A stretch of DNA of 64,000 bases from positions 192,001 through 256,000 of the forward strand of contig CM000435.1 of the NCBI GenBank assembly GCA_000165345.1, in the 5' to 3' direction. The translations under genes were made by a program, and so were the position numbers. A model generated the notes under the pieces. That model saw only the letters and a program-made list of their open reading frames with translations. It made no database searches and was not told the origin of the DNA. The first letter of the stretch is position 1; each line of letters starts with the position of its first letter. Positions 8,731 through 35,442 of this stretch are shown piece after piece.

Positions 8731-11700
8731 ATGTCTACAGAGTTACAGAAACAGATAAATTTTCAGTTAAGAAACAATGAATTAACTTTCTTATCTCAGA
8801 GGGCTCTGAAAGTGAACAGAAACAAAAAAGAAAGAATTTCTTTTCTTTTTGATACTAGTAATACAGAATTTCATTCAAGAAAGGGACTTAAACCTGATAA
8901 TAGGATCCCAATTTATGAAGATCTTGGAAGATTAAGATACCTTGCTGAACAGGGACTCATGGAGTTAGAGTCTCTAAATCCAAGAATTTCTCATGAATCT
9001 TTTAATGAATTTTTTGAGAATACTGATGTTCCTTCAATTCAAATGTTGACAAAACAAGAAGCTGGTGAGATGTTAAGAAAGTTGGAAAGATTAATAGATT
9101 TTTTGGTACCTTATTTTCTATTGGAATCTGCAAAAATTTGCATAGAGTATTTAATTCAGGCTTATGATATCAATGTTTTATTGGGTGAATATCTTTTTTA
9201 CTCTTTTCTGCCCTACCACGATATGGCAGAATTTTGTCAATTAATTAGAACTTTGGATATACCAGAAAACAGTGAGATCAAAGGTTTGGTTGACTCAATT
9301 AAGACAACAAGAACCGTAATCACTTCTAGAAGTTATCTTTCTTCAATTTTAATCAGAAATCCAGCTTTGTTTAAGAATATTGTCATATTTTGGGAGAAAA
9401 GATTAGAAACATTTCAATTAACTAAGAATATACCATTAACTAACTTAATAACTTGGTTAGTTATTGAAATTATTGAGGACTTATCCAGATCTAAAGATTT
9501 AAAGAATCTTCATATTTTTCTTGAAAGTATTATTGAAATTATTATTTTTGGTACTTGTTTAAAAGGATCTCAATATGAAGAGTTAAGATCTACAGGATAT
9601 TGTATACTATATAAATTATCAACACCTCTTCTTTCTCTCTCAAATGAAACTCAGGTTAGAATTATTGATGAACTTTTCAAATCTATTTCAAGAAATCAAA
9701 CATATTCACCAAATTACCTTTCTGAGACAATTCTATTAATGAATCATATCTTAACTCAATTTGGAACTTTGACTCATTATGAATATTTAGATCATGAAAT
9801 ATCTGAATTTATTATAGAGAATCAAGCTATTTTTATCAGTGCTTTTAAACAATTATCAGAATGGGAAAGTGATTTTCTACAAATCCTTGCTTTGATTACT
9901 AAATCGATCATCAATTTTGGGGTTAATCAAGATCAAAGTTTTTCAAGACCTTGTCTTAACTTTTTTGAAAGTATCTTAAATTGTTTAGGGAATTCATCTT
10001 CCCTATTATTAATGGATGAAAGACAATCTAAAATGATTAAAGTTATTATTCTAAGCTTAATAGACGTTTACTCTCAAGATCAAATTCAAAATCCATTTTT
10101 TGGAAATATTATTAAAATTCTTCATACAAATTATCCATCTGAACTACTTTCTGCTCTCAGCTTTTCTTTAAATGTTTCTTCATCTCCACAATCACAATTA
10201 TTTGAACTTAAAGAAAAGGCTCAAATGTTTGTGGATATTGTTCTTAAAGAAGAAGAAGAAGCAAAAAGTGATTCTGGTATATTACAATCTAAAGAAGGAG
10301 AAAGTTCACGTATGTTCTTAACTTTACTAAATAGTCAAGACAAATCAGTATTAAATTCTTGTTTGGATATGATTATCAATTTGATAAAGAAATCTTCAAA
10401 GAATCCCAGTGAAATAACTCAATTTGAGAAGAGAGTATTTGAATTATCATTAAGACATTTCCTCGGTTCCTTTAATGATGAAAGTGGTAAACAAAATAAC
10501 TTTGGCGAGGAATATGCTTTAAAAATTTTAAGCTTACCTCAAACAATCGAAATTTCAAAATTTTTAGATCTTGAAGATATCCCGTCTCAAGATCAAGGCC
10601 ATCGTGATCTCCAAAAACAATGGAGAGTTAATTTGATTTTTAAGAGTTTTCTATTTTATTTTAAATCCAAAATAACATCAGGATATTCTACTCTTATAAA
10701 ATATTTTTCAAAAGAAATTTCATCCGAATTAAACTTGAAGGATCATCAAAATGGTAACTTTAATATTGAAGCTATGATTATGGAATCTACATTTTCTCAT
10801 ATATTTGGTCAAAATTTTGAGACAAATCTTATGGATTTATTTAAAAGTTTTTCTATTATTCTTGAAAATGATACTTTTGAGCTGAAGAATCAAATGAATA
10901 ATTTGGATGTAATTCTAATGGAGAATTCAGATATCTTTATTCCTCTATTCACCTTAATTTCACATGAAAATCTTTCATTTTCTCAAGATCTCAAAAAATC
11001 TTCAACTAGATTACTTGCTTTAATGTATAAGAATGATCAAATCAATACCTATTTTAAGCAAATCCTATTTAAATCAAGCGTAAACTGTTTGGAAATTTCT
11101 TTAATCTTATTATCACTGAAGAAGCTTAATTTAGATCTTAGATCTAGTTATCTCCTACCTAACCACTCATTTTCAAAGTTTGGAATTTATTTAAATAATG
11201 ATCAAGAAATTATCAGTCTATTGGAAACTTTATATTACAAATTTTACTATTATATCAGTTCCGCAATAAGACCACTCAAGAATGATAAAAAAATATCCAA
11301 TCAATTAGTTGGTATTTATATTTTAATTATATTCAGATCTACTTTACAAATTGTCTCATCTAGACGAGATCATTTCATTTTATATTATAAATTATTGAAT
11401 ATTTCCTTGGTGGATACTTTAGATATTGGAATTCTTTCAACAAATCATTTGGGATTACCATTGTTTCAAATGATTAATTCTTGTTTTGATTCTAATAATG
11501 AAAAAAAGAATAAAAAGATCTCAATTTTGGTTATCAATCTTACAAGGAACTTATTCAACATTTTGTCTCAAAGTGGGTCAGCATCATTTAATTTAGATTA
11601 TCTTAATAATGATCAATCATATTCAATATTTTATGGAAAGAATGTATATTTAGATACATTAATAAGTCATAGTTATTCTTTTCTGGAAATAATTACTTCA

Positions 11701-14700
11701 AAGTTACCAGTTCTACAAGATTCAAAGAATAATACATTTTCTGTCTCAAATTTACTTGAGATCTTATATAGTATTTTATCTTATGCAATTATTCCAGCTT
11801 TCTTAGATCAAAAATCTATATCTATAAAAATGGCATCTTTTAGGCTTTGTAAAGCAATACAAGATAAATTAAATCCAATTAATATCGAAAAAGTATTTGG
11901 GAATTCAAATTTGAAGTTTTCTGATATTTTATTAAGCTATAATAATTCTAATGATACCGGTACCGATTTTAATTATACAAATAATCATTTAAGATCATGT
12001 TATTTAAATAAATTTGGTCCAAAAATTCATCAAGTTTTAGAGGTTATTGATTCATTACTAAATCATCAATCTGAAGTTATTGTTGAAAATAATTTTCAAA
12101 ATCTTTTTGAAATTATTTTTAAAGATAATAATAAATCTATTAATATACCCGGTACCTTATTAATGTTAAATTTGGTAATGACCTTTGAAATGGCTTTTAC
12201 TAGTAAATTTATTCAAAAAATTGATTTAAATTATACACTTTTATCAGATTATGTGAGAAAGAACTTTATTTTTGGCAGTATTGATTCAAATTATCATGAG
12301 ATCTTGATAAATATTTCTAAAAGTTTCTTAATTAAAAATGAATATATCGATCATCATATTATTATTGGATTATCATTCTTAAAACAAGGGATCGATAATT
12401 TGGTTGATTATATTGATAAACAAGAACAAATTGATACAATAAAAGAACTAATACTCGAATATTTGAATGTTATTCAGAGATTTGAAAAAGAATTCCAATA
12501 TTTTGTTTTGATCAAAGAAAGTAATTTGGCTAAACAAGTTTTCTGTGAAATATTATTAACATTTTTAAATGAGAAGATTACCCAATATCTGAAAAGTGAT
12601 CATGAATTTGCTTCTTTTGTCGTTGGAATAATTTCTCAAATTATACAATATTCTCCAGAAAGCATTAAAAAAGTATCTTTATCTCAATATATTCAAAGTA
12701 AATCATTGGAAAGATTGGATCTTTTGATTTGTAGTTTATTGGAATATTGTTTAAAAGATGAACATTCTAAAAGATCAAATTCTAATTTCAAATTAAATAA
12801 TGATTCAGATACCGTATTTAATGAGCAAATAATCTTGGAATGGATTTATTGTGATTTGAATCTAGTTAATATTGAAATCTTGAATGATCAAAAAGAAGTT
12901 GAATATACATTTAATAAAGATCTTATTTGTCAAACTTTAAGATATTTAGAAATTAATAGAAATAGATTAAAAAGAAATCATCATGAAGAAATGGATCTTG
13001 ATATTCTATTTAAGACTGAGATTTACTTGATTAGAATATTAGATTTTGGAATTAAACTGAGATATACTCAATTTAAAGATTTAGAACCAATTTTGAATTA
13101 CTTTGAAATTACTGAAGAAACTAATAATAGAGTTGAAATCTCCAAGTTTATTTTAAATCCTATGATCATATCTTCAATTACAAGTCTTTTTTCAAGTATT
13201 AAAATAAAATCAAAGAATAAAGACTCAATGGATCACTCAAAATCATACTTTAAAATTTGTAAGATCTTATTTTCTATTTATATGAATTTGGCAAAAAATA
13301 CACATGGTGGTATCGATCAAAAGAATTATACAATAAAATCAACATTTTATTCTTTGAATCTATTTGTTAACCATAGCTTACAAGATTGTATATATTTTGA
13401 TCATTCTAGTAAAGAAAGAATGAAAGGTATCTTATTCAAGATCTTAATAAGTGAACAAATTAAAGAGATTGTTGAGACAAATAAATTTAATCAAATACAT
13501 GAGATACTTGATTTTATGGAGAAACTTCATAATGATGTTATTTATTGCCAAAACGTACATAGATTTAAAAAGAGTCAAGGAATTTTCATGATCATTAGAT
13601 ATTATCTAAATATGAACCAAGACTCTCAATCTGAAGATCTTGAACAATTAATTAAACATCTTTTGAAGAATCAATTATTTGATACAAGAACAAATGTTTA
13701 TAAGGATTTACTTCTTAATGTTCAAAATGAAATGGAAATTTTAATGAAATTTGAAGATCATGATCATAATAATCATGGATTTGAAACAAGAAAAGTTATT
13801 CTTGAGAATCTTATATTAATGACAAAAACTATCATTTATTTCTTAAATAAAACTTTATTAACTACAGAAATAAAATCAAATGAATCTCAAGATTTACTTG
13901 AATTATTTGATAGCTTAATTTTAATTAAAACTTTAATGAATAAAAAAATCTTAAAAAAACTCGGTACCGTACTAAAAAATAACGAGACAGATCTTGAAAT
14001 GAATGAAAAACTTAAATCCAGAATTGACAAATTAGAAAAAGAGTATTTAATCAATTCAATAGGATTGGATAAAGATTTTCAACATTATGATAATGAGGAA
14101 TATGTTATTAAGACTATTCAAAAAGATATTGATCAATTAATTCAAAGTATTATTGAAGATGATAGTATGAAGAAATATCTTATTGTTCATTGGGATTTAT
14201 CTAAAGATTCAGGTTTTGAAGTTTTAAAGAATTTAAGAAAAAGATTCTATTCTTTATTAATAAGTAATAAAATTGATTCTTTGGGTATTATTTTAAAAGA
14301 ATCTTTAGATAAGAAGCTTAAAATTTCTATAGATTTTAGATCTTCTTCAATTAATAATCATGATCAAGTAAAACAAGAATCTAATGTATTTAATACAATA
14401 CAATATCTTTTAGATATTATGATTTCTAGTAAAGAATTTAAAAATTCATTCAAATATAGATCAAAAACCCAAAAAGATCTTCATGTATTAGATGAGAGTA
14501 TGGATACTGGTACTGAATCAGAAAGTGAAGAAAATGAAAAAGAAGATTTGAGATCAAAGTTGAAGTTATGGATCAAAAATTGGTATATTATAGATTTAAT
14601 TCTCAAAGTTGTTAAAACACAAGGAGAAGAAAGACAAAAAGATCAATTTAATAAATTAATCTTTTCAAAAATTATGAGTTTCTATAATAGTCAAGAAAAT

Positions 14701-17061
14701 ATGCATGATGGATATGGAATAGTTTTCAAGATCCCATTAATACAGAATTTCTTATTAGAGAAGATTTCAAAATTAGAAAAGACTGATACTATAACTATCT
14801 TAAATGAAATACAAATTATTCTTGAAGATACAATACGTACAATCAAACTTTTAAATAGTAATTCAAATATTTTTGAATATATTCATATTCTAGAGGATAG
14901 AAAAGTCAAATCTATATTAATTTCTATGATAACTTCAAGTTACAAAGATTTAGATAATGATGAAAATGATGAATTTAAAACAAGAAAAGCTTTATTACTA
15001 CCTTATTTAGCTTTGTTAAATACATTACTAAGTTCAAATATTGGTTCAGTAATGATGAATGCAGAAACAAGAAAGGAGATCTTAATAAATGTATTATTAC
15101 ATGATAGTATGGTACCGTATTATGATCTTAATATATTAACAAATCTATTAAAGAGTGAAAGAACGAGAAAATCTAAATTTAATACAAGAAAAGAGAAATA
15201 TAAACAAGATAAATCTTTAGAAAATCATATTGAAGATTTAACAATGTTAGATAAAAATAAAAGTAATAGTAATCACAAATTGAATTTTTATTTGGAAGAA
15301 TTGGACAAAAATATTAACTCTTCATCTGGAATATTAATAGAAGGAGGTACTTTGGAGAATTATTTAGTAAGAATTCTCTTAATTTATTGTAATTTAACAA
15401 GTTCACCAACATCTCATTCTTATAATGAGGACTTTATTGGAGGATATAGTCAAGTACTTAAAGAGATTTCTTCAGAATTATTTTCAAAATTAAATTTAGA
15501 AGAAGGTACCGGTATTAAAAAGATATTAAAAGATCATGGAATAAATATATATTATTCAAAATTGACCAATTTAGTTTTAATTGTTTCATTTTCATTAAAT
15601 TTCATGGATGCTGGTAAATTGATTACAGAAAAGTCATTTATTGAAAGATTTTCTCAATTTTATCTTTTATTGGTGAATTTATTAATAATAAACTTCTCAA
15701 AATTACATTCAATTAAGGAGACAGAATTGAAAATGTTAGAAGAAGATTCTACAGATTCTAAGATTGGAAATAGTTTAGAAAAGTTATCAGGTAGAAAAAG
15801 AACAGAGGAGGAGAAAGATGATAATTATAATAGGAGAAATAATATGAAAAGTAATAATAATAATAGAGGAAAAGAGGAATCTTTGAATGGTTTTATTTCA
15901 AATATATTTGGAGTAGATGTATTATTATCCCATGGTTGTGTGAATCCAAAATGGTTTGATTTAGATATTAAAGATCTTAAGAAATTATCAAACTTAAAAT
16001 CGAATAATACATTTACAAATTTGAAGATCTGGAAATTAGAATCAAGTATTTCAACTTTAATATCAGTATTTGTATTAAAACTGAATGCAAAAAGATTAAG
16101 AGAATTTATATTATTAATAAAAAGATTGATTCATAGAAATGGTGAGAGTTTTCTTTCAAAAGTAAGTTCAATGACAAAGAAATCTGATGATTCAAAGACT
16201 GCAAGTAATTCTGATAAGAAGGCAATAAAAGATCTATATGAAGAGATTTCTTCTTCAGAAAGTTCAACATTAATTAAAGATATTTATTCTTGCAGAATTT
16301 GGATTTTAATTTTATTAGCAGTATTTGAATCAACAGGTGAATATGGTATATATTGTCTTATAGATGACGTGGCATTGGATGTGAAATCAATTTGTGATTT
16401 AACTCAAATGAATGCTTTAACATGCGTTCAGAATATTACAATATCTCAATATAGAAATATTCATAGTCCAAGTAAAAGATCACCAAATCATCAACAGATT
16501 GCTAATTTGAGTCATTTAGATAATGAGCTTGGTTGGTACTGGTACCATTTAGGTATATATAATTTAATATTAATAAAGATAATTTATTTAAATTTATCAG
16601 TACAAAATGAAGAATCAAAAGATGTACCAAATTCAATAGAAGATTATTTAGTAAATCCAATAGTTACAAATTTGGATATGTTTGCTTTATTTGAGCCAGG
16701 CTCAACTAAAAATTTAACAGGCTGTGGAAAACAATGGGATCTTATTTTGAGTGATATTTGGATTCATTCAATAAGATGTTTTAGAAGTAATGATTTAATA
16801 TTGGCTGGAATTATTAGATTATTGGTGAATAAAATAAGAAATGGTAATGATCAGGTTAGAATGTTCTCAGCAGAAGTTTTACTTAAGCTTTGGAAGGATG
16901 AAATATGTTCGATTACAATTTTGTCTCATTTATCAGATATTCTTCCTACAATTAAGGAACTTCTAAGTGACCATTCTGAGGAGATGATTAATATTACTAA
17001 ATCAATAGTCAAAAAGATTGAAGAAAGAACAGGAGAAGATATTTCCAAACAACTTTGCTAG
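8731..17061 (+). CDS. HEATR1: HEAT-repeat protein HEATR1 / UTP10 (U3 snoRNP t-UTP component, small-subunit processome), 2776 aa
   Basis: The N-terminal U3snoRNP10-like block LVPYFLLESAKICIEYLIQAYDINVLLGEYLFYSFLPYHDMAEFCQLIRTL aligns to human HEATR1 LSPYFLLKPAQKCLEWLIHRFHIHLYNQDSLIACVLPYHETRIFVRVIQLL. The C-terminal BP28CT-like HEAT tail DQVRMFSAEVLLKLW...ILPTIKELLSDHSEEMINITKSIVKKIEERTGEDISKQL matches the HEATR1 tail pattern KVRFAAL...LLPESIPFLAELMEDECEEVEHQCQKTIQQLE..GEPLQ. Confidence 0.75.
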   Translation: MSTELQKQINFQLRNNELTFLSQRALKVNRNKKERISFLFDTSNTEFHSRKGLKPDNRIPIYEDLGRLRYLAEQGLMELESLNPRISHESFNEFFENTDVPSIQMLTKQEAGEMLRKLERLIDFLVPYFLLESAKICIEYLIQAYDINVLLGEYLFYSFLPYHDMAEFCQLIRTLDIPENSEIKGLVDSIKTTRTVITSRSYLSSILIRNPALFKNIVIFWEKRLETFQLTKNIPLTNLITWLVIEIIEDLSRSKDLKNLHIFLESIIEIIIFGTCLKGSQYEELRSTGYCILYKLSTPLLSLSNETQVRIIDELFKSISRNQTYSPNYLSETILLMNHILTQFGTLTHYEYLDHEISEFIIENQAIFISAFKQLSEWESDFLQILALITKSIINFGVNQDQSFSRPCLNFFESILNCLGNSSSLLLMDERQSKMIKVIILSLIDVYSQDQIQNPFFGNIIKILHTNYPSELLSALSFSLNVSSSPQSQLFELKEKAQMFVDIVLKEEEEAKSDSGILQSKEGESSRMFLTLLNSQDKSVLNSCLDMIINLIKKSSKNPSEITQFEKRVFELSLRHFLGSFNDESGKQNNFGEEYALKILSLPQTIEISKFLDLEDIPSQDQGHRDLQKQWRVNLIFKSFLFYFKSKITSGYSTLIKYFSKEISSELNLKDHQNGNFNIEAMIMESTFSHIFGQNFETNLMDLFKSFSIILENDTFELKNQMNNLDVILMENSDIFIPLFTLISHENLSFSQDLKKSSTRLLALMYKNDQINTYFKQILFKSSVNCLEISLILLSLKKLNLDLRSSYLLPNHSFSKFGIYLNNDQEIISLLETLYYKFYYYISSAIRPLKNDKKISNQLVGIYILIIFRSTLQIVSSRRDHFILYYKLLNISLVDTLDIGILSTNHLGLPLFQMINSCFDSNNEKKNKKISILVINLTRNLFNILSQSGSASFNLDYLNNDQSYSIFYGKNVYLDTLISHSYSFLEIITSKLPVLQDSKNNTFSVSNLLEILYSILSYAIIPAFLDQKSISIKMASFRLCKAIQDKLNPINIEKVFGNSNLKFSDILLSYNNSNDTGTDFNYTNNHLRSCYLNKFGPKIHQVLEVIDSLLNHQSEVIVENNFQNLFEIIFKDNNKSINIPGTLLMLNLVMTFEMAFTSKFIQKIDLNYTLLSDYVRKNFIFGSIDSNYHEILINISKSFLIKNEYIDHHIIIGLSFLKQGIDNLVDYIDKQEQIDTIKELILEYLNVIQRFEKEFQYFVLIKESNLAKQVFCEILLTFLNEKITQYLKSDHEFASFVVGIISQIIQYSPESIKKVSLSQYIQSKSLERLDLLICSLLEYCLKDEHSKRSNSNFKLNNDSDTVFNEQIILEWIYCDLNLVNIEILNDQKEVEYTFNKDLICQTLRYLEINRNRLKRNHHEEMDLDILFKTEIYLIRILDFGIKLRYTQFKDLEPILNYFEITEETNNRVEISKFILNPMIISSITSLFSSIKIKSKNKDSMDHSKSYFKICKILFSIYMNLAKNTHGGIDQKNYTIKSTFYSLNLFVNHSLQDCIYFDHSSKERMKGILFKILISEQIKEIVETNKFNQIHEILDFMEKLHNDVIYCQNVHRFKKSQGIFMIIRYYLNMNQDSQSEDLEQLIKHLLKNQLFDTRTNVYKDLLLNVQNEMEILMKFEDHDHNNHGFETRKVILENLILMTKTIIYFLNKTLLTTEIKSNESQDLLELFDSLILIKTLMNKKILKKLGTVLKNNETDLEMNEKLKSRIDKLEKEYLINSIGLDKDFQHYDNEEYVIKTIQKDIDQLIQSIIEDDSMKKYLIVHWDLSKDSGFEVLKNLRKRFYSLLISNKIDSLGIILKESLDKKLKISIDFRSSSINNHDQVKQESNVFNTIQYLLDIMISSKEFKNSFKYRSKTQKDLHVLDESMDTGTESESEENEKEDLRSKLKLWIKNWYIIDLILKVVKTQGEERQKDQFNKLIFSKIMSFYNSQENMHDGYGIVFKIPLIQNFLLEKISKLEKTDTITILNEIQIILEDTIRTIKLLNSNSNIFEYIHILEDRKVKSILISMITSSYKDLDNDENDEFKTRKALLLPYLALLNTLLSSNIGSVMMNAETRKEILINVLLHDSMVPYYDLNILTNLLKSERTRKSKFNTRKEKYKQDKSLENHIEDLTMLDKNKSNSNHKLNFYLEELDKNINSSSGILIEGGTLENYLVRILLIYCNLTSSPTSHSYNEDFIGGYSQVLKEISSELFSKLNLEEGTGIKKILKDHGINIYYSKLTNLVLIVSFSLNFMDAGKLITEKSFIERFSQFYLLLVNLLIINFSKLHSIKETELKMLEEDSTDSKIGNSLEKLSGRKRTEEEKDDNYNRRNNMKSNNNNRGKEESLNGFISNIFGVDVLLSHGCVNPKWFDLDIKDLKKLSNLKSNNTFTNLKIWKLESSISTLISVFVLKLNAKRLREFILLIKRLIHRNGESFLSKVSSMTKKSDDSKTASNSDKKAIKDLYEEISSSESSTLIKDIYSCRIWILILLAVFESTGEYGIYCLIDDVALDVKSICDLTQMNALTCVQNITISQYRNIHSPSKRSPNHQQIANLSHLDNELGWYWYHLGIYNLILIKIIYLNLSVQNEESKDVPNSIEDYLVNPIVTNLDMFALFEPGSTKNLTGCGKQWDLILSDIWIHSIRCFRSNDLILAGIIRLLVNKIRNGNDQVRMFSAEVLLKLWKDEICSITILSHLSDILPTIKELLSDHSEEMINITKSIVKKIEERTGEDISKQLC

Positions 17062-17416
17062 TAAATTATTAATAGAGAAAAAAAAGAGGTACCTAAATGA
17101 GCCTTCATGCATGCATGCGTATGAATATGCATGCATGCATACCGTGACACGTAATTGTATATAAACATAAAATTTAGATTTTCTATCCATTATTTCCGTG
17201 TTTATTATTTATTTGTTGATTTGATTTGATTTTTTGTTCTCTTACTAATTAATTAAAGTAAAAGTTTTGATGATTAGGGCGAAATGAGTGTAATTATAAT
17301 TCGTTCATAATGGCGGAATGATGGAAAGAGCAGTAAAGATATATTGTGGTTGGATGATGCGGTAAATATAATTTAGATGATAAAGAATAGAATAAGTTAA
17401 TTCAAATATTACAAAA

Positions 17417-18211
17417 TTAATTTGCCCTTTCCACTGCTTTAATAACTTCCTTTGCATTTTCCGACCATTTTCTGAATGTTTCAATAGCATCAGTAATAAA
17501 GCTATTAGAAGTCTCATCAGCATCTTTAAGTTGTTTATCAACTTGGGAAATCTGTGTTTGAAGTTCATGGAACTCTTTTGTAAGTTGATCCAGATTTGTT
17601 CTAAGCTTGGAATTTAATTCTAATAGAAATTTCTCCTCTTCAACAATAATAAGTGATTTAGCTTTTTCAACCACAGGAACCAATCTATCAACCATTAAAC
17701 ACTCTTCCTTATCTTTTTGAGTATGTATTCTAGCAAGATCAGCAGCTGATAGCTTATATACTTCCTGTCCAAGCTCTTCAACTAAAGCTAATCTCTCATC
17801 CACAATATCTAACTTATATTGAATCTTGAATTTTTCTGAATTTATACGAAAAATTTCAATCAATTTGAGTTTGAGCTCGTGTAAAAAGCACTTATATTTG
17901 CTCATAATATCCATATAGACATCATTTGGAAGATCTCCAAATGGCCGAATGATATCTGTCAGTGATGGAATACTTGAAACTACTCCAACCAATTCTTTTT
18001 CCCCCTTCTTGCTATCATTTTCATTCTCTCCAAATCTCCATTTACTTCCCCATTCTGTATCGCTATCCTTATTCCTATTCAATTTACTTTCTCCAGTTAC
18101 CTGGATTGTGTTAGCATCTTTATTTTCATCAATAATAAAACCTTTCGTCTTCCCAATCCATTGATTGAGAATTTGATGATATCTCGAAGCTTTCATTTTT
18201 TCTTGTCTCAC
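17417..18211 (-). CDS. Hypothetical protein, 264 aa, C-terminal half predicted coiled-coil. No family recognised.
   Basis: Complete ORF with compositional and codon-usage continuity. E2F/GC-box and TGCATGCATGC motifs lie 300-350 bp upstream (18514-18565). Confidence 0.55.
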   Translation of the reverse strand: MRQEKMKASRYHQILNQWIGKTKGFIIDENKDANTIQVTGESKLNRNKDSDTEWGSKWRFGENENDSKKGEKELVGVVSSIPSLTDIIRPFGDLPNDVYMDIMSKYKCFLHELKLKLIEIFRINSEKFKIQYKLDIVDERLALVEELGQEVYKLSAADLARIHTQKDKEECLMVDRLVPVVEKAKSLIIVEEEKFLLELNSKLRTNLDQLTKEFHELQTQISQVDKQLKDADETSNSFITDAIETFRKWSENAKEVIKAVERAN

Positions 18212-18639
18212 ATTAATCTTTAATTTATTCTAAAATAATTAAATCTCATGAGAAAGAAATCTTTACCAATATAATATTACTAAACCCCACCCCAACAGCT
18301 TCCGCTTCCTCTTTTCTTAAGCCCTTTGTACCGAATCTCACTTATGAAAGAACACAGTAAAAAAAAATGCAACTTTTTTTCAATAGCAAAAATCTTTGCC
18401 AAGTTCACCGTCCTTTATCCGCTCTATTCTCCAATTCCTCCACCCTTAAATTCAAAAAAAAAAAAAATCAACAATGCTTTCTAAAAAATTATACTTATGG
18501 GGGCTCAAGAAAAGCCCGCCCTAAAACATACCGGCTCCCCACATTGCATGCATGCTTGTGGCGCCTGTTTGCTTGCAATGACTAACTATAAAAGCGTAAA
18601 ACGGTTTTAAGGTTTAAAAAAGGAGAATCAGAGTTCTCA

Positions 18640-20400
18640 CTATTTTTTAGGTTTCTGTTTCTGTTTTTGGCGGTGATTGCTCTGTCTGGAAGATGCTACA
18701 GCTGCAGCAGATGCCTCAAGTGTTGGGAGCCCAGGAATAACATACTCATTCTTGGGCTTTTGTTGTACATTAACAACAGTTGGGACATTATTGGAATCTC
18801 TAGCAGCTCTCATCCTCTCAGCGAATCCACTACTTGCCCATTTTGGTCTGTAGATTTGTTTTTCTGGCTGAGGTTTTGAGTTAAATTCCCTTCCAGGAGA
18901 AACTGATCTATATTTCACTGAGCGTCTATAATCAGCAGTCTTTGGAGACCAATAAGCTGAGTAAAGTGTGTCGAAGTTGACTCTTTTAAGCAAATCACCA
19001 TTATATCTAAAGATCCGAATCGCATTATCTACTCTAAGTCTGGGAGAGGTAGTAGAAGCCAGTAGAAACCTTCCACAAACTGACCATTCAAGAGTAATAC
19101 AACAAGAAGCATTAGTTTGGCCAATAAGCTTCTGTTTATCAAGATCCCAAATATCTAGATCTCCTGCAAGGTTTCCAAACCCTCCATATGCAAACCATTT
19201 TCCTGAAGGGTTCCATCTAATTGTATTTCTTCTGGATTTCCCAAAGCTAACTTTAGGAGAGCCATCAATCCCACTATTCAAAGTCAGCTCTGGAGGAATA
19301 ATTCCCTTACATAAGAGAAATTCATTGGATTTTGGAGACCAAGCAACATCATTCACAGGACCTTCTTCTGGTGGAACAACCACTTGATGTCTTAGACTCA
19401 GCTTCTCTGAGGGTTTAAAACCATCGCTTCCATTTTTATTTCCATTTTCAAGATCATTATTTCCTCCTTTATTTCCTTTCCAAGCACTATTTGCCACAAC
19501 AGTCTTAGAGTTTTGAATTCGAAGTAGATGCAGACTTGAAGATCCAAAATAAGATTTTCCCAAAGTTTCACCTTCAATTTGAGCAAACACTAAAATACTA
19601 TCCCCTGAGTTATTCCAAGAAACTTGACATGTTTGAGCTTCTTTTACACAAACTTGTCCAATTGAGCTAAGCTGGATCTCTTTTTTGCTGTCCATCTCTG
19701 CATGGTATACATATACATCCATATTTTGTGCAGATTGGGGAGTTACTACTGTAAAGTTCAAGCTACTCAATTTAGATCCTTCTTCTCCTAAATCACTTCC
19801 TCCATCAATCTCGTTAGAAACTGAAAGTTGTATACTTTTTGAGAAATTTAAAGTTCCTATAGGATTTTCCAGGCTTTCAGTATCGCTTTTAAATATTGAT
19901 ACACTGGTATCTTGGACTTTAAATACAAAGATCTCATTATTACTCCATCTATATGGAGGCCAAGTACTAAGAACTTTTGCACTGTTTGTTTTAAAAGGAA
20001 AAGAAAACAGTAATTTTACATTTTCCTTCAGTTTGTAAACTTGTAGGTTATTTTCATTCTTTCCTTGTTCAAATACTGTTAAAACCAATAAATAACTTCC
20101 TAATGGTGAATATTGCAACTTTCTAACTGGGAAATCATTCTCTATCTTAAGCTCCTTATTAACTTCACCTTCTCCTTTTGTTATTAAAATCACAGAATTC
20201 TTTGAATCCTTTGGTACAAAACAGTATCCTCTTCCTTGGGGTTCTTGGGCATAAATTTCAACACCTTCCAAAAATGGAATTGGATTGTTAACTGTTAATT
20301 CTTCAGAATTTACGTCATTCTTTGTCATTCCTCTAAGCCTATATACTCCTCCTTTTCCCAAACACACTATCTCGTCGTCATATTCCACCGCTCTAGACAT
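18640..20400 (-). CDS. EIF2A: Eukaryotic translation initiation factor 2A (eIF2A, 65 kDa WD40 beta-propeller protein), 586 aa
   Basis: WNPSGKWFAYGGFGNLAGDLDIWDL and ASTTSPRLRVDNAIRIFRYNGDLL align to the human eIF2A LAGFGNLRGQMEVWDV and TATCAPRLRVNNGYKIWHYTGSIL. There is no N-terminal RRM (so not eIF3b). The basic KQKQKPKK tail fits. Confidence 0.85.
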   Translation of the reverse strand: MSRAVEYDDEIVCLGKGGVYRLRGMTKNDVNSEELTVNNPIPFLEGVEIYAQEPQGRGYCFVPKDSKNSVILITKGEGEVNKELKIENDFPVRKLQYSPLGSYLLVLTVFEQGKNENNLQVYKLKENVKLLFSFPFKTNSAKVLSTWPPYRWSNNEIFVFKVQDTSVSIFKSDTESLENPIGTLNFSKSIQLSVSNEIDGGSDLGEEGSKLSSLNFTVVTPQSAQNMDVYVYHAEMDSKKEIQLSSIGQVCVKEAQTCQVSWNNSGDSILVFAQIEGETLGKSYFGSSSLHLLRIQNSKTVVANSAWKGNKGGNNDLENGNKNGSDGFKPSEKLSLRHQVVVPPEEGPVNDVAWSPKSNEFLLCKGIIPPELTLNSGIDGSPKVSFGKSRRNTIRWNPSGKWFAYGGFGNLAGDLDIWDLDKQKLIGQTNASCCITLEWSVCGRFLLASTTSPRLRVDNAIRIFRYNGDLLKRVNFDTLYSAYWSPKTADYRRSVKYRSVSPGREFNSKPQPEKQIYRPKWASSGFAERMRAARDSNNVPTVVNVQQKPKNEYVIPGLPTLEASAAAVASSRQSNHRQKQKQKPKK

Positions 20401-21339
20401 TTTCCAACTCTAATTACAATAAGTTTTCTTTATAATACAACTAGAAACTAATATTATATAATCTTTCTTTAATTAAAACAAAAATTTGTTTCCTCCTTCC
20501 CTTGTAGTCTCCTCCCACTCTCTTTTTATTTCTCTTTCTCTAACCTTCGTGATCTCGTACTTTCCTTTTTCTAGGTAATCCGAGCTCAAGATCCTAAAAT
20601 CTTCCTATTCCGTTCTCCGTAGTTTTCCAGCTTTTCTTCTCTCAGGGAATCCTATTTCTATTCTCCCCAAGTCTTATTTCCCTTTTTTTTCCTATTTTAC
20701 TATTATTTATTAATTTTTTTTCAAAGCTTTAGACGTATACCGGCGTCTCCCGCCTAAATGAAAATAAAGTGGGAATGAGAAATAAGGCAGAGAAAATAAA
20801 TCAAGGTTGAGGATTAAAGAATAGAAAAAAAGTGATTAAAGTAGTAGAGAATAATATAATTGGGAGTAAATAGTAATTTTGTGTATATATTTATATGAAC
20901 ACGTATATACAAATTCATTAGGTGATTGTGATCCAGTATTTGATCTTGTTATTTGTGTCTCAAAATCACTATCTTTGCCTATTTAGCCTTTGAATCAGTA
21001 AATATAAATATTAAATATATATATATAAGGTAACCGGGTACTATGACTTAAGAATTAAAGCAGGCTTTATTTCTCTACTTTGTTACTTTAAAAAAGAAGA
21101 AAATTAGTTATATTACAACTTTTAAAACTAATATTATAAAAATAAATAGATCTGGATCTTAAGTTATTAAGGGTAACTGTAAATTTGGATTAATATATTC
21201 CCATATTTAAATATACTAAAGCTCGATTATTAATTCAATAATTGAAATTTTTTCTTTATCCAGTATTGAATTAAGTTAGTGTGGAGAAACAAATCGAATT
21301 TTTAACATAAAAAGAGGATCAAATTGCTTCTACAATAAA

Positions 21340-23577
21340 TTGGTGATGAGTCTTGGTAACAATGGTAGTGGGGGAATCAATAATGGAGGATATGAAGATA
21401 TAAGATTTGGTAATAAATCCGGTACCCATAATATGGTATTTCAAGATCTAAGTGGTAAGCATACAGGATATCTTGAAATTCAACAAAATAATCATAATTC
21501 TGCTCAAATAATAATGGATGATCATGAAATAGGAGGAGGTTCTTCTCAAAGAATGGATCAATTGGGAGGTATAACGCAAAGTAATAGTAATACAGGAAGC
21601 TTAGCTGGAAGTCAGTCCTCAATAGGGAGTCAAAGCTACCAAAGCCATAGTTTGAATTCCTCATCTACTTCTCTTCCAAATTCAAATTCAAATTCAAATT
21701 TGAACATGATAATGATGAGTTCTAATTCTGTTCAAGGTCATAATCATGGCCAGAATCGGAATTCAAGTTCCCAAATTCTTCGAAGTTCTATTCATCCTCA
21801 AAATTCCCATTATTACAATAATCCAAACTTGAATAGTTCTGTTTCCCAACCAGGCCCATCTCAATTTCAACATCAGAACAATCATATGCAACAAATTCCT
21901 CAAAATGTGTACCAGCTACAAATGCAAAACCCAGTTAAGTCTCAACAATCATCTCGATCTCACAGTGTGCCTCCATCTTCATCCCCATCTCCTTCGTCGT
22001 CTCCAACTCTCCAGGCCTCTCAGTTGAATGATTACCCTTCAAAAGGTTCATACTCGCAAAGCTCGCAGGTCCTTCAACATTCTCCGTCTCCTTCGCCCCA
22101 GTATTCTCAATCTTCCCATTACTCCCAGCCTTCTCGCAATTCTCATCCATATCAGCTTACGCAGCCGTCTCAGATGTCCCAACAAACTCAGTTACAGTCC
22201 TCTCAACCACATAAGCAGATCCAATTTTCTCAATCTTCTCAGGCGTTTCAGCTTACTCAGCCATCCCAACCGTCTCAGCCTTCTCAGCCTTCTCAACTTA
22301 CTCAGCCTTCTCAGCCTTCTCAGCCTTCTCAGCCTACTCAATTTTCCCAACTTACTCAGCCTTCTCAGCTTACACAACCTTCTCAGCTCACTCAACCTTC
22401 TCAGCTCGCTCAAGCATCCCAACTCTCACAATCATCTCAGCTTGCTCAGGCGTCTCAGTCGTCTCAACAAAGTTACTTAGCTCCTTCAAACCCTTTAAGG
22501 AACTACAATATTCCTATAGAAAAGGTGGTATGGGACTATTTGCATTTCTTGTATAGACAAAACACAGGAGTTTTGGGATATTTGGCTCCTTATATAGACG
22601 AATCATTTAATATCGGTAAATTTCATTGTTTGGTAACGGAATTCTGCAAAAGACAAAGGGTATCGAAGGATGCATTGATCATAAACTCAAAGAATTGGTT
22701 TAAAGAATGCCTAGATCAAAGAGAGGCTACTCAGAGCGTGGAATTGACTATAGAGTGCGAAATAAAGAAGTATGTTGAATCTAAGATCAAACGCTATGAG
22801 GATTTAGGCTTTAAACTAGAGTCTGATAAGATCTCCAAGTTTTATTGTAATTTGGTACCATACATGATCAAAAATCTTTGGAGAAGATTGGAAAATGCAA
22901 GTTATCAAAGAGTTGACTGGTCATCTAGACAGTTCTTAGGAAGTGAAGTAGACCCCAAATTTTGCAATTATGATATGGTTAGCAGAATTATGAGACTTAA
23001 CAGCAGCAATTCTGATGAATCTAATAGGGATAATAGTGAGACGGTATCTGGAAATAAGGCAATCAGGTCTCAGGATAATGATAAGGAATTATCATCCAGG
23101 GAAAAACACGAAGGATCTGACTATATGATGGATTCAAACTCAGATTCTGGTAACAGAAGGAGCCATCAAAGTATTATGAATGTTAAAGCAAATATTGATG
23201 ATCATCATGACCATTGCATAAATGAAATTGATAATTCTCAGAGTCATGGCCAAAACTACAGCCAAAATCAAAATCAAGATGATATTCAAATGAATAAAAG
23301 AAGGAATCCAGATGAACACGATGAACAGACAAAAGAGATGGTAATTGTTTCCAGGACTCAGAAATGGCTCTTAAGAAACGTTAAACTTGAAGATTTTAAG
23401 TACTTAATTAGAGTTGATCAGCTTAGAGAAGAGAATATATTGAGAAATTCTGCTCCATCAAAGCATAAGTCCAAGTCGAAATCAAGATCATCTAGTTCTA
23501 ATACCTCAGTAAGACTACCTAGGAAGACTCAGAATGTTATTTTAGACTACATTAACTTGTGTAATTTTAAAATTTAA
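21340..23577 (+). CDS. Hypothetical Ser/Gln/Pro-rich low-complexity protein, 745 aa, with a tandem QPSQ(L/P)(T/S) repeat array and a non-repetitive C-terminal domain
   Basis: Long ORF. The internal 9/18-bp tandem repeats (cagccttct / cagcttactcagccttct) are in frame. No family recognised for the C-terminal 350 aa. Confidence 0.55.
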   Translation: MVMSLGNNGSGGINNGGYEDIRFGNKSGTHNMVFQDLSGKHTGYLEIQQNNHNSAQIIMDDHEIGGGSSQRMDQLGGITQSNSNTGSLAGSQSSIGSQSYQSHSLNSSSTSLPNSNSNSNLNMIMMSSNSVQGHNHGQNRNSSSQILRSSIHPQNSHYYNNPNLNSSVSQPGPSQFQHQNNHMQQIPQNVYQLQMQNPVKSQQSSRSHSVPPSSSPSPSSSPTLQASQLNDYPSKGSYSQSSQVLQHSPSPSPQYSQSSHYSQPSRNSHPYQLTQPSQMSQQTQLQSSQPHKQIQFSQSSQAFQLTQPSQPSQPSQPSQLTQPSQPSQPSQPTQFSQLTQPSQLTQPSQLTQPSQLAQASQLSQSSQLAQASQSSQQSYLAPSNPLRNYNIPIEKVVWDYLHFLYRQNTGVLGYLAPYIDESFNIGKFHCLVTEFCKRQRVSKDALIINSKNWFKECLDQREATQSVELTIECEIKKYVESKIKRYEDLGFKLESDKISKFYCNLVPYMIKNLWRRLENASYQRVDWSSRQFLGSEVDPKFCNYDMVSRIMRLNSSNSDESNRDNSETVSGNKAIRSQDNDKELSSREKHEGSDYMMDSNSDSGNRRSHQSIMNVKANIDDHHDHCINEIDNSQSHGQNYSQNQNQDDIQMNKRRNPDEHDEQTKEMVIVSRTQKWLLRNVKLEDFKYLIRVDQLREENILRNSAPSKHKSKSKSRSSSSNTSVRLPRKTQNVILDYINLCNFKI
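22246..22462 (+). repeat. In-frame coding minisatellite of about 24 degenerate 9-bp units (CAGCCTTCT / CAGCTTACT = QPS/QLT) inside the S/Q-rich gene
   Basis: Read directly. The antisense and alternate-frame ORFs the track lists here (22028..22480, 22192..22422) are repeat artefacts. Confidence 0.8.
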
Positions 23578-23726
23578 TTTAATTTAAAAAAAAAGAAATT
23601 GGATTTATAATAGGCGCCAAATTCCACTAAAGATTTTGCATGCATGCATTTTTATATATATTATAGATACCCACTTATATAGTAGAAAAAAAAATTTAGA
23701 CAAATTAAAGTTTTATATATTTATGA

Positions 23727-25238
23727 TCATCTTATTACATCATTAATTACTTGTTTATTTACATGCAAATACAAGAATAGGCTTGAAATACTGAGTGAGG
23801 AAATAGTTAAGGTTAGTATTATATAGATCTTAGATAATCTTGAGACAAATATTAAAAAGAAAAGCTTGTAGATATTGATAATCAAGTCATTTGAAAGTAC
23901 TTTCCACAAAAAATAGGTAGATATATTAAATTCATGTGTCTCTTTATGTTTATTTAAAATGTAAAGACTATATAAAATGTTTTCAAGGGAAAACAAGTCT
24001 AGGTAAAATGCTAAATCTGCAAGTTGAAGAATCTTGAATGGCTTTATTTTGGTTTGATTCTGCTTGAGTTGTGAGGTATATTTCGTTAAAGCTACTCTAA
24101 ATGAGTCACTAGCATTAAAATGAAAGTAGGAAATCAGTCCTTGGGTAAAGAAAGTTTGGGAAAACTTGCAAAATAAAAAATTGTCTTGGTGTACACTTGG
24201 AAGAGCTGAAAGAAAAGATGTTAAGGAAACGGATAATGATGAAGATGATGATGAGGAAGAGGAGGGAAGATCTGAGAGAACTTGACTAGACAAATGGCAA
24301 TCATCTTTTTTTTTACTTCTTTTTTTACTGTGAATATCCATACTTTGGTCTCTACCAATATCTTGTTCTTGGGATTTGGTTGAGTGGAATGATGATGAGG
24401 ACAAAGGGGAAATTTGTTGATTCACTTCTTGGCATCCAAAATTATCTTGATTTTGATAAAGTTCTGCTTTGATTGTCGAATAATAGGAAGAGGAAGAAGA
24501 TGAGGAAGAAGAATGAAGATTTTGAGAACCAAAAGATGAAGTTTGTCCAGGATTTTGAGTGTTATTAGTTATCCAATTAAAACTAGAAGTTATATTTCCA
24601 GCAGCTAGAAAAGATCTAACTTGGATGACCAAGAAGCTTAAACGAACCAAAAAAAACAAAACTGATTGAGAAAGTTTTAAATACTGGGATGATAAGTAAC
24701 TGAAAAATATAATGTCAACAATTTCATGAAATCTACTTACGACACCTATTATACTGCACCAAGTATTATATATTCCACTAAATTGATTATGGTTAAATAT
24801 ATCATTTTGAAAGAATAGAAATTTACATAAATACTTTTCTTTATTAAATAGAAAAATTGAATAAATAACTCCAATTGTGTAAACTAATAAATAAAAGCTC
24901 CATGAATTATATATAAATATGTTTGATTTTATTAAGATGGTATCAAATTTATTATCAAAATCCAAAATATTTCGCGAGTTTCTTTGTATAATTTGTATTA
25001 ATAAAAAAACTAATATATTAAAAGAATATTTATAAAACAAAATCTCACCTAATTTATCCATTATTTCCAAATAACTAAAAAGATCAATCTTCATTTTTGG
25101 AACTGATGTCCAGTTATCTAAGTTTATGTTTGGATCCTCATTTAATTCTGAAATAATTATCTCATCAAGTACTGTTGAGAAGCTCAATTCATGGCTTCTT
25201 TCAGAATCTGTCAAAAATTCTTGATAGTTATCAATCAT
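23727..25238 (-). CDS. Hypothetical multi-pass membrane protein, 503 aa, with Ser-rich linkers
   Basis: Complete ORF with several hydrophobic 20-25 aa segments (FNILVFLLIQII, FYLLVYTIGVIYSIFLF, IYIILTLTISSLSISSLFLYL). E2F-like TTTTCCCGCCA and ATGCATGCATAC lie 270-340 bp upstream. Confidence 0.5.
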   Translation of the reverse strand: MIDNYQEFLTDSERSHELSFSTVLDEIIISELNEDPNINLDNWTSVPKMKIDLFSYLEIMDKLGEILFYKYSFNILVFLLIQIIQRNSRNILDFDNKFDTILIKSNIFIYNSWSFYLLVYTIGVIYSIFLFNKEKYLCKFLFFQNDIFNHNQFSGIYNTWCSIIGVVSRFHEIVDIIFFSYLSSQYLKLSQSVLFFLVRLSFLVIQVRSFLAAGNITSSFNWITNNTQNPGQTSSFGSQNLHSSSSSSSSSYYSTIKAELYQNQDNFGCQEVNQQISPLSSSSFHSTKSQEQDIGRDQSMDIHSKKRSKKKDDCHLSSQVLSDLPSSSSSSSSSLSVSLTSFLSALPSVHQDNFLFCKFSQTFFTQGLISYFHFNASDSFRVALTKYTSQLKQNQTKIKPFKILQLADLAFYLDLFSLENILYSLYILNKHKETHEFNISTYFLWKVLSNDLIINIYKLFFLIFVSRLSKIYIILTLTISSLSISSLFLYLHVNKQVINDVIR

Positions 25239-25651
25239 TGTTATGCTAGCTAAGAAGCTAGCTTACTTGTCTTATGTTAGATTTTCTGCTTTCCCTAATT
25301 TCACACACTTTTTTTCAATTAATTTGCCAATTTTCTTATTTTTTGCTCAATGTTTAACCTGAATAACCATATTTATTTTAACAATTAGCCAATTTTGTTG
25401 AGTAAAACTTATTCTTATGCCTTAATCTAAAGTTAACCAGTAATTATTTATCTTTCTTATGCGCTTTTATTATATATTTTATTTTCTCCATATTTTTTAT
25501 CATTTTCCCGCCATACATGCAAATTTCCGGCGCACAGCCCCCCACGAGACGAATTTTGAAAGAAAAATGCATGCATACAAATTTCAGAGAATATTCAAAG
25601 AAAAAAAAAATGAAAGCTTCTAAAAAGCTATTTTAGTTTACAGAAGACAAT

Positions 25652-27063
25652 CTACGATTTAGATGACAATGAAGTAACTCCTGGTAACAACTTCCCCTCA
25701 AGTAGCTCTAAAGAAGCACCTCCGCCTGTAGAAACATGAGATACCTTATTAGCTGATCCACATTTTTCAACTAATGATGCAGTATCACCTCCACCCACAA
25801 TTGTGATTGAACCTGACTCTGTTGCTGCAACAAGTGCTTCAACCATGGAGCGAGATCCTTTTGAGAATTTCTCCATCTCAAATACACCTGGAGGGCCATT
25901 AGCAACAATAGTTTTTGAAGAAAGAATCAATTCTTTAAAAGAATTGGATGATTCTGGACCAATGTCAAGACCCATCCAACCATCCGGAATACCTTCAGAA
26001 TCCTTAATAATTCTAGCGTTTGCTTCATTAGAAAAGTTATCTGCAATGACAAAATCACTAGGTAATAAAATCTGAACATTCCTCTCCTTGGCTGTATCCA
26101 TAATTTCTTTAACAATTTTGGCTCCTTCTTCATCAAATAAAGATTTGCCAATTTGCATATTATCCATCACTTTTTTGAAAGTGAAAGCCATTCCACCTCC
26201 AATAATCATTCTGTCAACTTTTAAAAGCAAATTCTTAATCAACTGAATCTTATCAGCAACTTTGGCTCCTCCCATGATTGCTAAGAATGGTCTAGTGGGA
26301 GATTCTAAAGCTTTACTGAAATATTCCAATTCTTTTTTCAACAACAAGCCAGCAACTTTTGGTGTTAAATCAACACCAACCATTGAACTATGTGCTCTGT
26401 GTGCTGTTCCAAAAGCATCATTCACATAAATATCGCCTAATGAGCTTAAAGACTTTCTAAAAGCTTCAATTTCTTCAGGAGTTGCCTTTACTTTTTCACC
26501 ATTTTCATTTACACCTTTGCCTTCTTCTGCTAAGTGGAATCTCAAATTCTCCAGCAAAATAATGCTTCCTTCTGCTGGATTCTTGCATAACTCCTCTGTC
26601 TCATTACCTACACAATCCTTTGCAAAGATTACTGATTTACCCAATAATTCCTCCAAAATTGGAACTATTACAGTTAATGAGTATTCCATCTTTCTTTGTC
26701 CATCTGGCCTACCCAAATGAGAAGCCAAAACTACACTCTTTGCTCCGCACTCTAAAGCATATTTTATGGTTGGAAGACTTGCAATTATTCTAGTTTTGTC
26801 TGTAACTTGCCCATTCTTTACTGGTACATTCATATCTACTCTAATGAATACTCTTTTGCCTTTTAACTAAAATCATTTAACATAATAGGGAGAAAAAAAA
26901 ATGAAAATTAGTTAGTTATTCATTCAATATTTAATTAAAATATGTTGTAAAAACAACATTGATTACTTTTTTCTCTGTTTATCCTCCAAAAAAATCCTTT
27001 CACAAACAAATAACTTACCTCTGATGCAACATCAGTTATATTAAGCTTTTTTGAAAGATCCAT
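25652..27063 (-). CDS. PGK: Phosphoglycerate kinase, two exons: join(complement(27019..27063), complement(25652..26866)), 419 aa
   Basis: Exon 2 carries the PGK signatures ([26 protein letters not shown], hinge and C-domain). The ORF-track Met at 26833 lacks the conserved N-terminus. Upstream on the minus strand, ATGGATCTTTCAAAAAAGCTTAATATAACTGATGTTGCATCAGAG|GTAAGT encodes [22 protein letters not shown] acceptor then joins to [19 protein letters not shown], reproducing the yeast PGK N-terminus [28 protein letters not shown]. Confidence 0.85.
26867..27018 (-). other. PGK intron (152 nt; GTAAGTTATTTG...GATTTTAG on the minus strand) after codon 15
   Basis: A phase-0 junction restores the conserved PGK N-terminal motif. 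Without splicing, the upstream in-frame sequence hits TAG 12 codons before the ORF-track Met. Confidence 0.8.
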
Positions 27064-27227
27064 TTTATCCAATGATTATACAAAATCAAAATACAAACTT
27101 TGAAAAAAATTCTCTATAAAATAAATAGAATAGAAATTGAAACCAAATTATTTATCTATTTATTATTTGTAATAATAAATATCCAACCACTATTGCAATG
27201 TACACAGATTTCGCATGCAACATGGCT

Positions 27228-35432: not shown

Positions 35433-35442
35433 CCCGCCAAAA
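35433..35442. promoter_or_regulatory. E2F-like site CCCGCCAAAA about 185 bp upstream of the SR-protein gene
   Basis: Read directly from the sequence. Confidence 0.35.

Follow-up and report, generated by a model that had tools for sequence, protein, structure and literature searches.

We analyzed a 64,000-nucleotide (nt) window of Cryptosporidium parvum chromosome 7, running from cgd7_840 to cgd7_1010, for the palindromic octamer TGCATGCA and the hexamer CATGCA/TGCATG in the spacers between its genes. In this region, the CATGCA-type motif tracks gene 3′ ends. The window is AT-rich (~30% GC), and exact protein look-ups placed it on a C. parvum chromosome of 1.32-1.36 Mb, including CP141124.1 of the telomere-to-telomere CpBGF assembly (GCA_035232765.1), where a position equals 232,894 plus the window coordinate. 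We built a gene map from open reading frames (ORFs) starting with ATG and from public gene calls. Two leftward extensions brought the sequence to 86 kb of contiguous C. parvum DNA with 25 spacers of non-zero length: 5 convergent, 14 tandem, and 6 divergent. The first extension was an out-of-sample test of the pattern noticed inside the window.

Every convergent spacer (5/5) and most tandem ones (12/14) contained the hexamer, as against none of the six divergent ones; it was present, that is, in 17 of the 19 spacers with a 3′ end versus 0/6 head-to-head spacers (Fisher p = 1.6 × 10−4, for 25 spacers from one chromosomal region). The octamer was found in 4/5 convergent, 7/14 tandem, and 0/6 divergent spacers, at densities of 2.2/kb (convergent), 0.83/kb (tandem), and, in coding sequence, 0.075/kb. 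E2F-type sites follow another pattern: they occur in 2/5 convergent, 10/14 tandem, and 5/6 divergent spacers and lie 88-270 nt from ATGs. When sites were merged into 20 clusters, none fell in a divergent spacer (p = 0.008 under a length-proportional null). Furthermore, the octamer occupies the stop-proximal half of the tandem spacer in seven cases of seven (p = 0.016), and its distance past the preceding stop is conserved in five species, at +70 to +89 behind PGK and +82 to +90 behind the eIF2A-like gene.

The first extension supplied a fourth convergent spacer, between the Metallophos and DEAD_2 helicase genes, with the arrangement CCGGTAT..TGCATGCA..TACGTGTC conserved in C. ubiquitum, and two new divergent spacers with E2F palindromes only. 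The second added another divergent spacer, again with E2F only, and a fifth convergent spacer (RRM gene/SRP9, 1075 nt), which is without the octamer and carries TTTTGGCGCCAAAACATGCAG. In this last spacer (left extension 19379-20453, next to a 690-amino-acid [aa] RRM gene), a perfect E2F palindrome is fused to CATGCA in mid-spacer; C. ubiquitum has an E2F-type site at a similar offset, and the length of the spacer could conceal an unannotated transcript. Four relatives, C. meleagridis, Cryptosporidium sp. chipmunk genotype I, C. ubiquitum, and C. canis, show the same class pattern at their orthologous loci, with one hexamer exception, in samples that are not independent of one another.

A first-pass annotation of the window had singled out three spacers, numbered 1 to 3 here, as lying between convergent genes and yet carrying dense promoter-type motifs, and had suggested antisense or long non-coding RNA (lncRNA) promoters, short unannotated genes, or a role in 3′-end formation. 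Both ORFs and public gene calls bear out that the three are truly convergent, stop-to-stop gaps, and all motif coordinates that it gave were correct (Table 1). As for the motifs, an exact TGCATGCA is indeed present in all three spacers, while the E2F type is present in spacer 2 only, with no [CG]GCGC[CG] in spacers 1 and 3. The annotation had also proposed that equal motif density in other convergent spacers would mark a generic feature. Locally, this is essentially what we found: the two further convergent spacers outside the window carry a module of the same type. The feature is therefore generic to 3′ flanks, which keeps the idea of a 3′-end role alive; promoter-type modules behind genes are the local rule, and the three spacers are not special.

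Elsewhere in the window, the motifs were said to sit 100-400 bp upstream of start codons. This is so in four tandem spacers (273-409 nt) and not in two others (660 and 1104 nt), and the stop codon before these same tandem TGCATGCA sites is 43-596 nt upstream of them. Five further copies of the octamer lie inside coding sequence. The two outlying distances to the next ATG, 1104 and 660 nt, belong to the long tandem spacers 35250-36948 (1699 nt) and 40375-41381 (1007 nt), respectively, which may hold very long 5′ untranslated regions (UTRs) or an unannotated feature between genes. Two octamer copies (TTGCATGCAACTGCATGCAG, 51779-51796) are within the annotated AlkB-like ORF, ~220 nt past its ATG and ~440 nt upstream of the ATG of a divergent 457-aa gene; they could be an intragenic regulatory site or point to a mis-placed start codon. 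This AlkB-like gene (51560-52612, plus strand) adjoins the 5832-aa gene (from 52613, minus strand) at 52612/52613, making a convergent spacer of zero length, so that each 3′ UTR must lie within the coding sequence of the partner.

The motifs far exceed expectation. TGCATGCA has 18 matches in the window versus 0.48 expected from dinucleotide-preserving shuffles, of which 0/100 reached 18, and GGCGCCAAA has 3 versus 0.04 expected. The octamer was reportedly first described by Bankier in 2003. Among its companions, GACACGTA has 3 matches in the window versus 0.16 expected and ACACGT has 10 versus 3 expected, all of them intergenic. Spacers 1 and 3 have a common layout, in which TGCATGCATGC is followed by GACACGTA, then 10-11 nt, and then ACATAAAAYTTA. 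ATACCGG(C) stands beside GCATGC in spacer 3, where an additional GCATGC occurs at 33595, and also in tandem spacers near 18530 and 40759. More broadly, the partner motifs of the convergent spacers (ATACCGG, ACACGT, G-box, and GTCCACAT) are those of the ordinary tandem-spacer promoters of the window. Comparable tandem modules lie at 18530-18570, 25500-25575, and 40720-40820, with examples such as CATACCGGCTCCCCACATTGCATGCATGCTTGTGGCGCC at 18528-18566 and TTTCCCGCC...GGCGC...GCATGCA at 25500-25575. The convergent-spacer modules are thus assembled from the same parts as the tandem-spacer modules. In spacer 1, the conserved block adjoining the motif overlaps the minus-strand AATAAA signals of the 259-aa gene (~17195-17212). 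A separate candidate promoter element lies at 27235-27259, ~170-190 nt upstream of the first PGK exon: a double ACACGTGT palindrome between G-boxes (GGGGAACACGTGTACTATATTCACACGTGTGGGG). C. ubiquitum and C. canis have ACACGT and a G-box in the equivalent place.

Table 1. Spacers, motif sites, and genes of the window
Feature	Window position	Strand	CP141124.1 position	Remarks
Spacer 1	17062-17416		249,956-250,310	between UTP10/HEATR1 (cgd7_860) and the 259-aa gene (cgd7_870)
First TGCATGCATGC copy, ApiAP2 AP2_1-type palindrome (spacer 1)	17108-17118	no strand		47 nt past UTP10 stop
Second copy, TGCATGCATGCA (spacer 1)	17128-17139	no strand		
Conserved block adjoining motif (spacer 1)	17140-17211			GACACGTA 17146-17153, TATATAAA 17158-17165, ACATAAAATTTA 17165-17176
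Spacer 2	23578-23726		256,472-256,620	149 nt; between the 743-aa gene and the 503-aa membrane gene (cgd7_890/900)
E2F/DP-type site TAGGCGCCAAA (spacer 2)	23611-23621	no strand		has a TTTSGCGC-type core
TGCATGCATGCA (spacer 2)	23637-23648	no strand		60 and 79 nt from the two stop codons
Spacer 3	33328-34388		266,222-267,282	1061 nt; between seipin and the SC35-like SR gene (cgd7_930/940)
Left part of module, ACACGT + ATACCGGCATGCAAG (spacer 3)	33583-33603			ACCGG..GC.AG core invariant even in C. canis
TGCATGCATGC (spacer 3)	33622-33632	no strand		295 nt past seipin stop
GACACGTA, then 10 nt, then ACATAAAACTTA (spacer 3)	33663-33692			
Ultraconserved non-coding block (spacer 3)	33742-34383	-		directly downstream of the SC35-like SR gene stop (34389)
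TGT	1412-2707	+		
Patched-like	3260-7900	+		
UTP10/HEATR1 (cgd7_860)	8731-17061	+		
259-aa gene (cgd7_870)	17417-18196	-		
eIF2A-like gene	18640-20400	-		
743-aa gene	21346-23577	+		
503-aa membrane protein	23727-25238	-		
PGK	25652-27064	-		
NatA auxiliary subunit	27850-31020	-		
Seipin	31591-33327	+		
SC35-like SR protein	34389-35249	-		
SecY and further genes		-		after the SR gene in the map

We compared these sites with 21-kb syntenic loci, anchored on PGK and the 259-aa protein, from seven relatives: C. meleagridis, chipmunk genotype I, C. ubiquitum, C. canis, C. felis (partial), C. bovis, and C. serpentis. The (TGCA)n runs of spacers 1 and 2 hold their position across C. parvum, C. meleagridis, chipmunk genotype I, and C. 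ubiquitum; in spacer 1, C. bovis retains a lone TGCATGCA. The site of spacer 1 is lost in the GC-rich C. canis and C. felis. Chipmunk genotype I preserves TGCATGCATGC of spacer 3, of which C. ubiquitum and C. canis have a degraded form, CATGCA. By sliding identity (20-nt windows, three species), the motif and the block beside it make up the most conserved portion of spacer 1 (windows 17132-17211 score 0.80-0.95 versus 0.27-0.63 for windows 17292-17411), and TGCATGCATGCA is the interior conservation peak of spacer 2, at 0.87. The E2F site of spacer 2, TAGGCGCCAAA, is conserved in C. meleagridis and lost in chipmunk genotype I and C. ubiquitum. Octamer copy number varies between species, from 2 to 5 in overlapping register, and in C. 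ubiquitum spacer 2 the motif has expanded into a tandem array of four GACATGCA. The (TGCA)n copy number of spacer 1 is different in every species, as in a microsatellite. Given this variation and the C. ubiquitum expansions, slippage acts on the repeat, while selection retains at least one octamer. Overall, positions are conserved over four or five species while the flanking spacer sequence diverges, and the alignments indicate that the spacer motifs are under purifying selection.

What might such a module do behind a gene? TGCATGCA is the known ApiAP2 motif "AP2_1", found upstream of C. parvum mRNA genes (Oberstaller 2013, PMC3734150). TGCAT-type sites are bound in vitro by cgd2_3490, cgd1_3520, cgd8_3230, and cgd5_4250 in protein-binding microarrays (PMC4117751), and [C/G]GCGC[G/C] is the E2F/DP site (PMC12246861). 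The clusters in gene 3′ flanks are putative binding sites for known factors, four ApiAP2 proteins in the case of TGCATGCA and E2F/DP in the case of GGCGCCAAA, with ATACCGG, ACACGT, and G-box partners. Among the four ApiAP2 proteins, cgd2_3490 peaks at 72 h, within the period of the sexual stages (48-72 h). Factor binding would open a short gap, and RNA polymerase II transcription would start outward from it. In tandem spacers, the module would drive the mRNA of the following gene and, in many cases, antisense RNA across the preceding gene as well. Where genes meet tail to tail, its products could be only non-coding antisense transcripts, extending back across one or both of the converging 3′ ends. 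A promoter module behind the gene, with predicted factor occupancy, initiation, direction, and regulatory effect, is in our tentative judgment the most likely function, although we give it slightly less than an even chance.

We rank this reading first because it has a direct published precedent. Li et al. 2021 described 396 C. parvum lncRNAs, of which 91.7% are antisense, with a bias to gene 3′ ends; E2F and AP2_1 (BGCATGCAH) were the top two motifs ≤100 bp upstream of them, and others there include ATACC(A/G)G- and TTGTCCACAT-types (PMC7840661). The latter two types are also seen in the spacer modules here. Our modules come from the same organism, stand at the sense-gene 3′ end with E2F/DP1 and/or ApiAP2_1 BGCATGCAH sites, and have the same partner motifs, which is where and how that class is found. 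Unlike the present analysis, Li et al. searched only 100 bp upstream of called lncRNAs, and a contrast between convergent, tandem, and divergent spacers is not reported there. Since lncRNA-promoter motifs had already been described, the leading idea of the first-pass annotation, antisense or lncRNA promoters, belongs to a known class; it is plausible, given promoter-type motifs that are conserved and accompanied by tandem-promoter partners, but it is not new, and the interpretation as a whole is partly supported. The current CpBGF annotation contains 766 lncRNAs (PMC12179316). In Toxoplasma, 44% of transcription start sites have gCATGCa ~82 nt upstream (PMC7854901). The spacer sites share with this element and with the AP2_1 motif of mRNA genes an identical palindromic core, a strong intergenic bias, and predicted binding by orthologous ApiAP2 domains. 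They differ in that no protein-coding gene lies downstream and that, locally, the motif is missing from all head-to-head promoter regions.

Several observations weigh against a promoter function. The absence of CATGCA-type sites from all six head-to-head spacers, which hold 12 promoters, is odd for a general promoter element, and in sporozoites the peaks of the assay for transposase-accessible chromatin with sequencing (ATAC-seq) are enriched for E2F and show no AP2 motifs (PMC11761812). The 3′-flank promoter reading explains neither of these facts. There is no CATGCA/TGCATG anywhere in the 21-kb syntenic locus of C. serpentis. Finally, none of the 20-mers (16-21 nt) taken from the spacers, the spacer 3 block, and the antisense of four adjacent gene ends occurred among the Li 2021 lncRNA sequences listed, which is weak negative evidence from a check in which a positive-control primer was found.

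Motif 11-mers, compared with the same listed lncRNAs, gave only Cp_lnc_330 and Cp_lnc_345, which do not match, and the upstream motifs given for Cp_lnc_1, 17, 131, and 132 are absent from the window. Matching by locus tag proved a false lead, as GenBank CPATCC_003242 (UTP10) is not CryptoDB CPATCC_0032420. We likewise rejected the host-exported RNAs Cdg7_FLc_0990 and Cdg7_FLc_1000 as products of cgd7_990 and cgd7_1000 in the window; Cdg7_FLc_0990 matches cgd7_4800. As a separate observation, C. serpentis is a gastric species, and it appears that, in this region, only the intestinal clade uses the AP2_1 motif.

The absence of the motif from divergent spacers is what one would expect of a boundary or termination element, which we consider unlikely overall but the most serious competitor. 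On this account, an ApiAP2-bound TGCATGCA module would mark the end of the transcription unit as a roadblock or insulator, like yeast Reb1/Abf1 sites; it would stop read-through into the next gene or the collision of converging polymerases, with antisense initiation as a by-product. It would explain the whole distribution over spacer classes together with the length-proportional test, the stop-proximal position in tandem spacers, the conserved distance from stop to octamer, and the different behavior of E2F-type sites, which stay near ATGs and in divergent spacers. In yeast, general DNA-binding factors act in short intergenic gaps, at 3′ nucleosome-depleted regions and Reb1/Abf1/Rap1 roadblock sites, and these sites both seed antisense non-coding RNAs and block read-through. 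The factors are unrelated to those considered here, however, and the yeast sites are mostly promoter-proximal and present in divergent spacers too. In Theileria parva, a promoter motif recurs at termination sites, and other motifs at these sites are enriched in 3′3′ spacers; a twofold function was proposed, in terminating transcription and in initiating antisense RNA (Tretina, Pelle & Silva 2016, PMC4761415). Theileria also has a compact apicomplexan genome with promoter-type motifs at transcript ends, but its motif sequences are different and the evidence there is likewise purely computational.

Against a boundary element, the count covers few spacers, 25 in a single chromosomal region, and one out-of-sample convergent spacer is without the full 8-mer. 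The order of the motif and the poly(A)-signal hexamers AATAAA, AGTAAA, and ATTAAA is mixed: in the 3′ flanks examined, the motif has no fixed position relative to them and precedes the first one in about half. It may therefore sit within the 3′ UTR, where a roadblock would be harmful. In Toxoplasma, moreover, the motif is tied to transcription start sites. To our knowledge, no apicomplexan AP2 factor terminates transcription. A bolder version, which we also regard as doubtful, would make TGCATGCA primarily a gene-end element of intestinal Cryptosporidium, with an ApiAP2 protein behind nearly every unit in gaps of 150-500 bp, E2F doing the promoter work, and lncRNAs arising as a by-product; separately, the SR gene would have an autoregulatory 640-nt 3′ UTR.

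If the motif lies within the 3′ UTR, it might instead be read in the mRNA, as UGCAUGCA, with the palindrome serving both overlapping 3′ UTRs. It would then be the site of an RNA-binding protein or, if doubled, a hairpin affecting stability, translation, or 3′ processing. Sites 37-94 nt past the stop codons of several genes are probably within 3′ UTRs, and spacer 2 is so short that both 3′ UTRs must cross the motif. In spacer 1, the two palindrome copies together can form a 15-bp hairpin on either strand (−22.9 kcal/mol, z = −3.75); the perfect hairpin or cruciform of 13-15 bp spans 17106-17142 in C. parvum and has a counterpart at 19716-19745 of the C. ubiquitum locus (−24.6 kcal/mol, z = −4.7). 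A general hairpin or "terminator" fold was rejected: it is significant in spacer 1 only, with z = +0.38 and −0.48 in spacers 2 and 3. The exact 8-bp palindrome occurs also in tandem spacers, where one strand alone would matter, and so strict a palindrome argues for a factor bound to DNA as a dimer. AP2 domains are documented to bind DNA directly. We know of no RBFOX-like factor in Apicomplexa. Taken together, these points make an RNA-level element improbable.

Still less probable is that the spacers conceal unannotated genes, for small proteins or structured RNAs, whose promoters the motifs would be. The short unannotated genes suggested by the first-pass annotation did not materialize: the spacers contain no short protein gene, tRNA, or Rfam family. 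Their internal ORFs in spacers 1 and 2 are ≤62 aa and unconserved, and none of the ORFs down to 20 aa in spacer 1 is conserved. ARAGORN found 0 tRNAs in the whole window, and Rfam gave 0 matches in the window at the gathering threshold and 0 in spacer 3 at E ≤ 1. Two facts favor hidden genes nonetheless. The 1075-nt convergent spacer outside the window has its perfect E2F palindrome in mid-spacer, and in spacer 3 a 640-nt block under extreme constraint begins ~90 nt downstream of TGCATGCATGC, which fits the start of a plus-strand transcript. This block has no codon periodicity and no global covariation, however, and it is contiguous with the SR stop codon, so that a 3′ UTR is the simplest reading.

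The block changes the picture of spacer 3, which had been taken as free spacer: ~640 of its 1061 nt are ultraconserved non-coding sequence. Compared with chipmunk genotype I and C. ubiquitum, identity per 50-nt bin is 0.88-1.00 and mostly 94-100%, a poly-T bin at 0.89/0.78 being the exception; compared with C. canis, it is 73-87%. In the same comparison, the SR coding sequence is 82-100% identical and the seipin 3′ end is barely alignable. By these alignments, conservation of the block exceeds that of the SR coding sequence. Read on the SR strand, the block is purine-rich, with GAAGAAGAG and GGAAATGAGGAAAAGGAAAGAGG runs, and it ends in an AATAAA-like signal near 33742-33747. A protein-coding block was rejected, as substitutions relative to C. 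canis are spread 47/47/50 over the codon positions and the ORFs are only 28-51 aa and not conserved. So was a globally structured RNA, for which the covariation was not convincing (RNAalifold covariation term +1.69, 4/163 compensatory pairs); two of the compensatory pairs belong to a single hairpin around 33780-33850. The C. serpentis locus, whose seipin/SR spacer measures 212 nt, has no such block, and the C. bovis syntenic stretch, which is also without the SR gene, gave no match.

Judging from its conservation and position, the block is probably an ultraconserved regulatory 3′ UTR of the SR gene, and it may alternatively be a plus-strand non-coding RNA beginning ~90 nt past TGCATGCATGC. With the block as SR 3′ UTR, the real 3′-3′ gap would shrink to ~400 nt, and the motif module would occupy its SR-proximal end. 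The minus strand of the block contains candidate GTAAAT...TTATTTAG splice signals. In other kingdoms, SR splicing-factor genes are known for ultraconserved non-coding elements and for autoregulation through unproductive splicing and nonsense-mediated decay (Lareau & Brenner 2015, PMC4379411). The Cryptosporidium block resembles these elements as a non-coding stretch at an SR gene that is conserved above the coding sequence and has purine-rich, enhancer-like runs. It differs in that alternative splicing, a poison exon, or a 3′-UTR intron would be a prediction for it, and in being absent from the C. serpentis locus. In a limited literature search, we found no report of such an SR-gene block in Cryptosporidium. 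Apart from the spacer motifs, we note it as a candidate autoregulatory 3′ UTR or antisense-RNA target.

The last alternative, that (TGCA)n is a slippage-prone microsatellite without function, would account for the copy number varying between species and for the C. ubiquitum array, but it is effectively refuted by conservation and spacer-class distribution: matches are ~37-fold more numerous than expected, the location is kept while the flanks diverge, tandem and convergent spacers hold the 8-mer at ~10- to 30-fold its frequency in coding sequence whereas divergent ones lack it, and it co-occurs with other, non-repetitive motifs.

The novelty of these findings is modest, and the leads are the 3′-end bias of TGCATGCA against the 5′ bias of E2F and the block of the SR gene. 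Should the local pattern fail to hold more widely, the spacers are ordinary members of a class already described. Little is understood of how Cryptosporidium regulates its genes, and the literature treats TGCATGCA as an upstream promoter motif. If the 3′-end pattern is true genome-wide, the target-gene predictions for TGCAT-binding ApiAP2 factors would need revision, and the pervasive 3′-anchored antisense transcription would be given a definite cis-element, be it the promoter of these transcripts or a boundary of which they are the by-product. The SR block, for its part, is a candidate case of a splicing factor regulating itself, in a genome where introns are very scarce.

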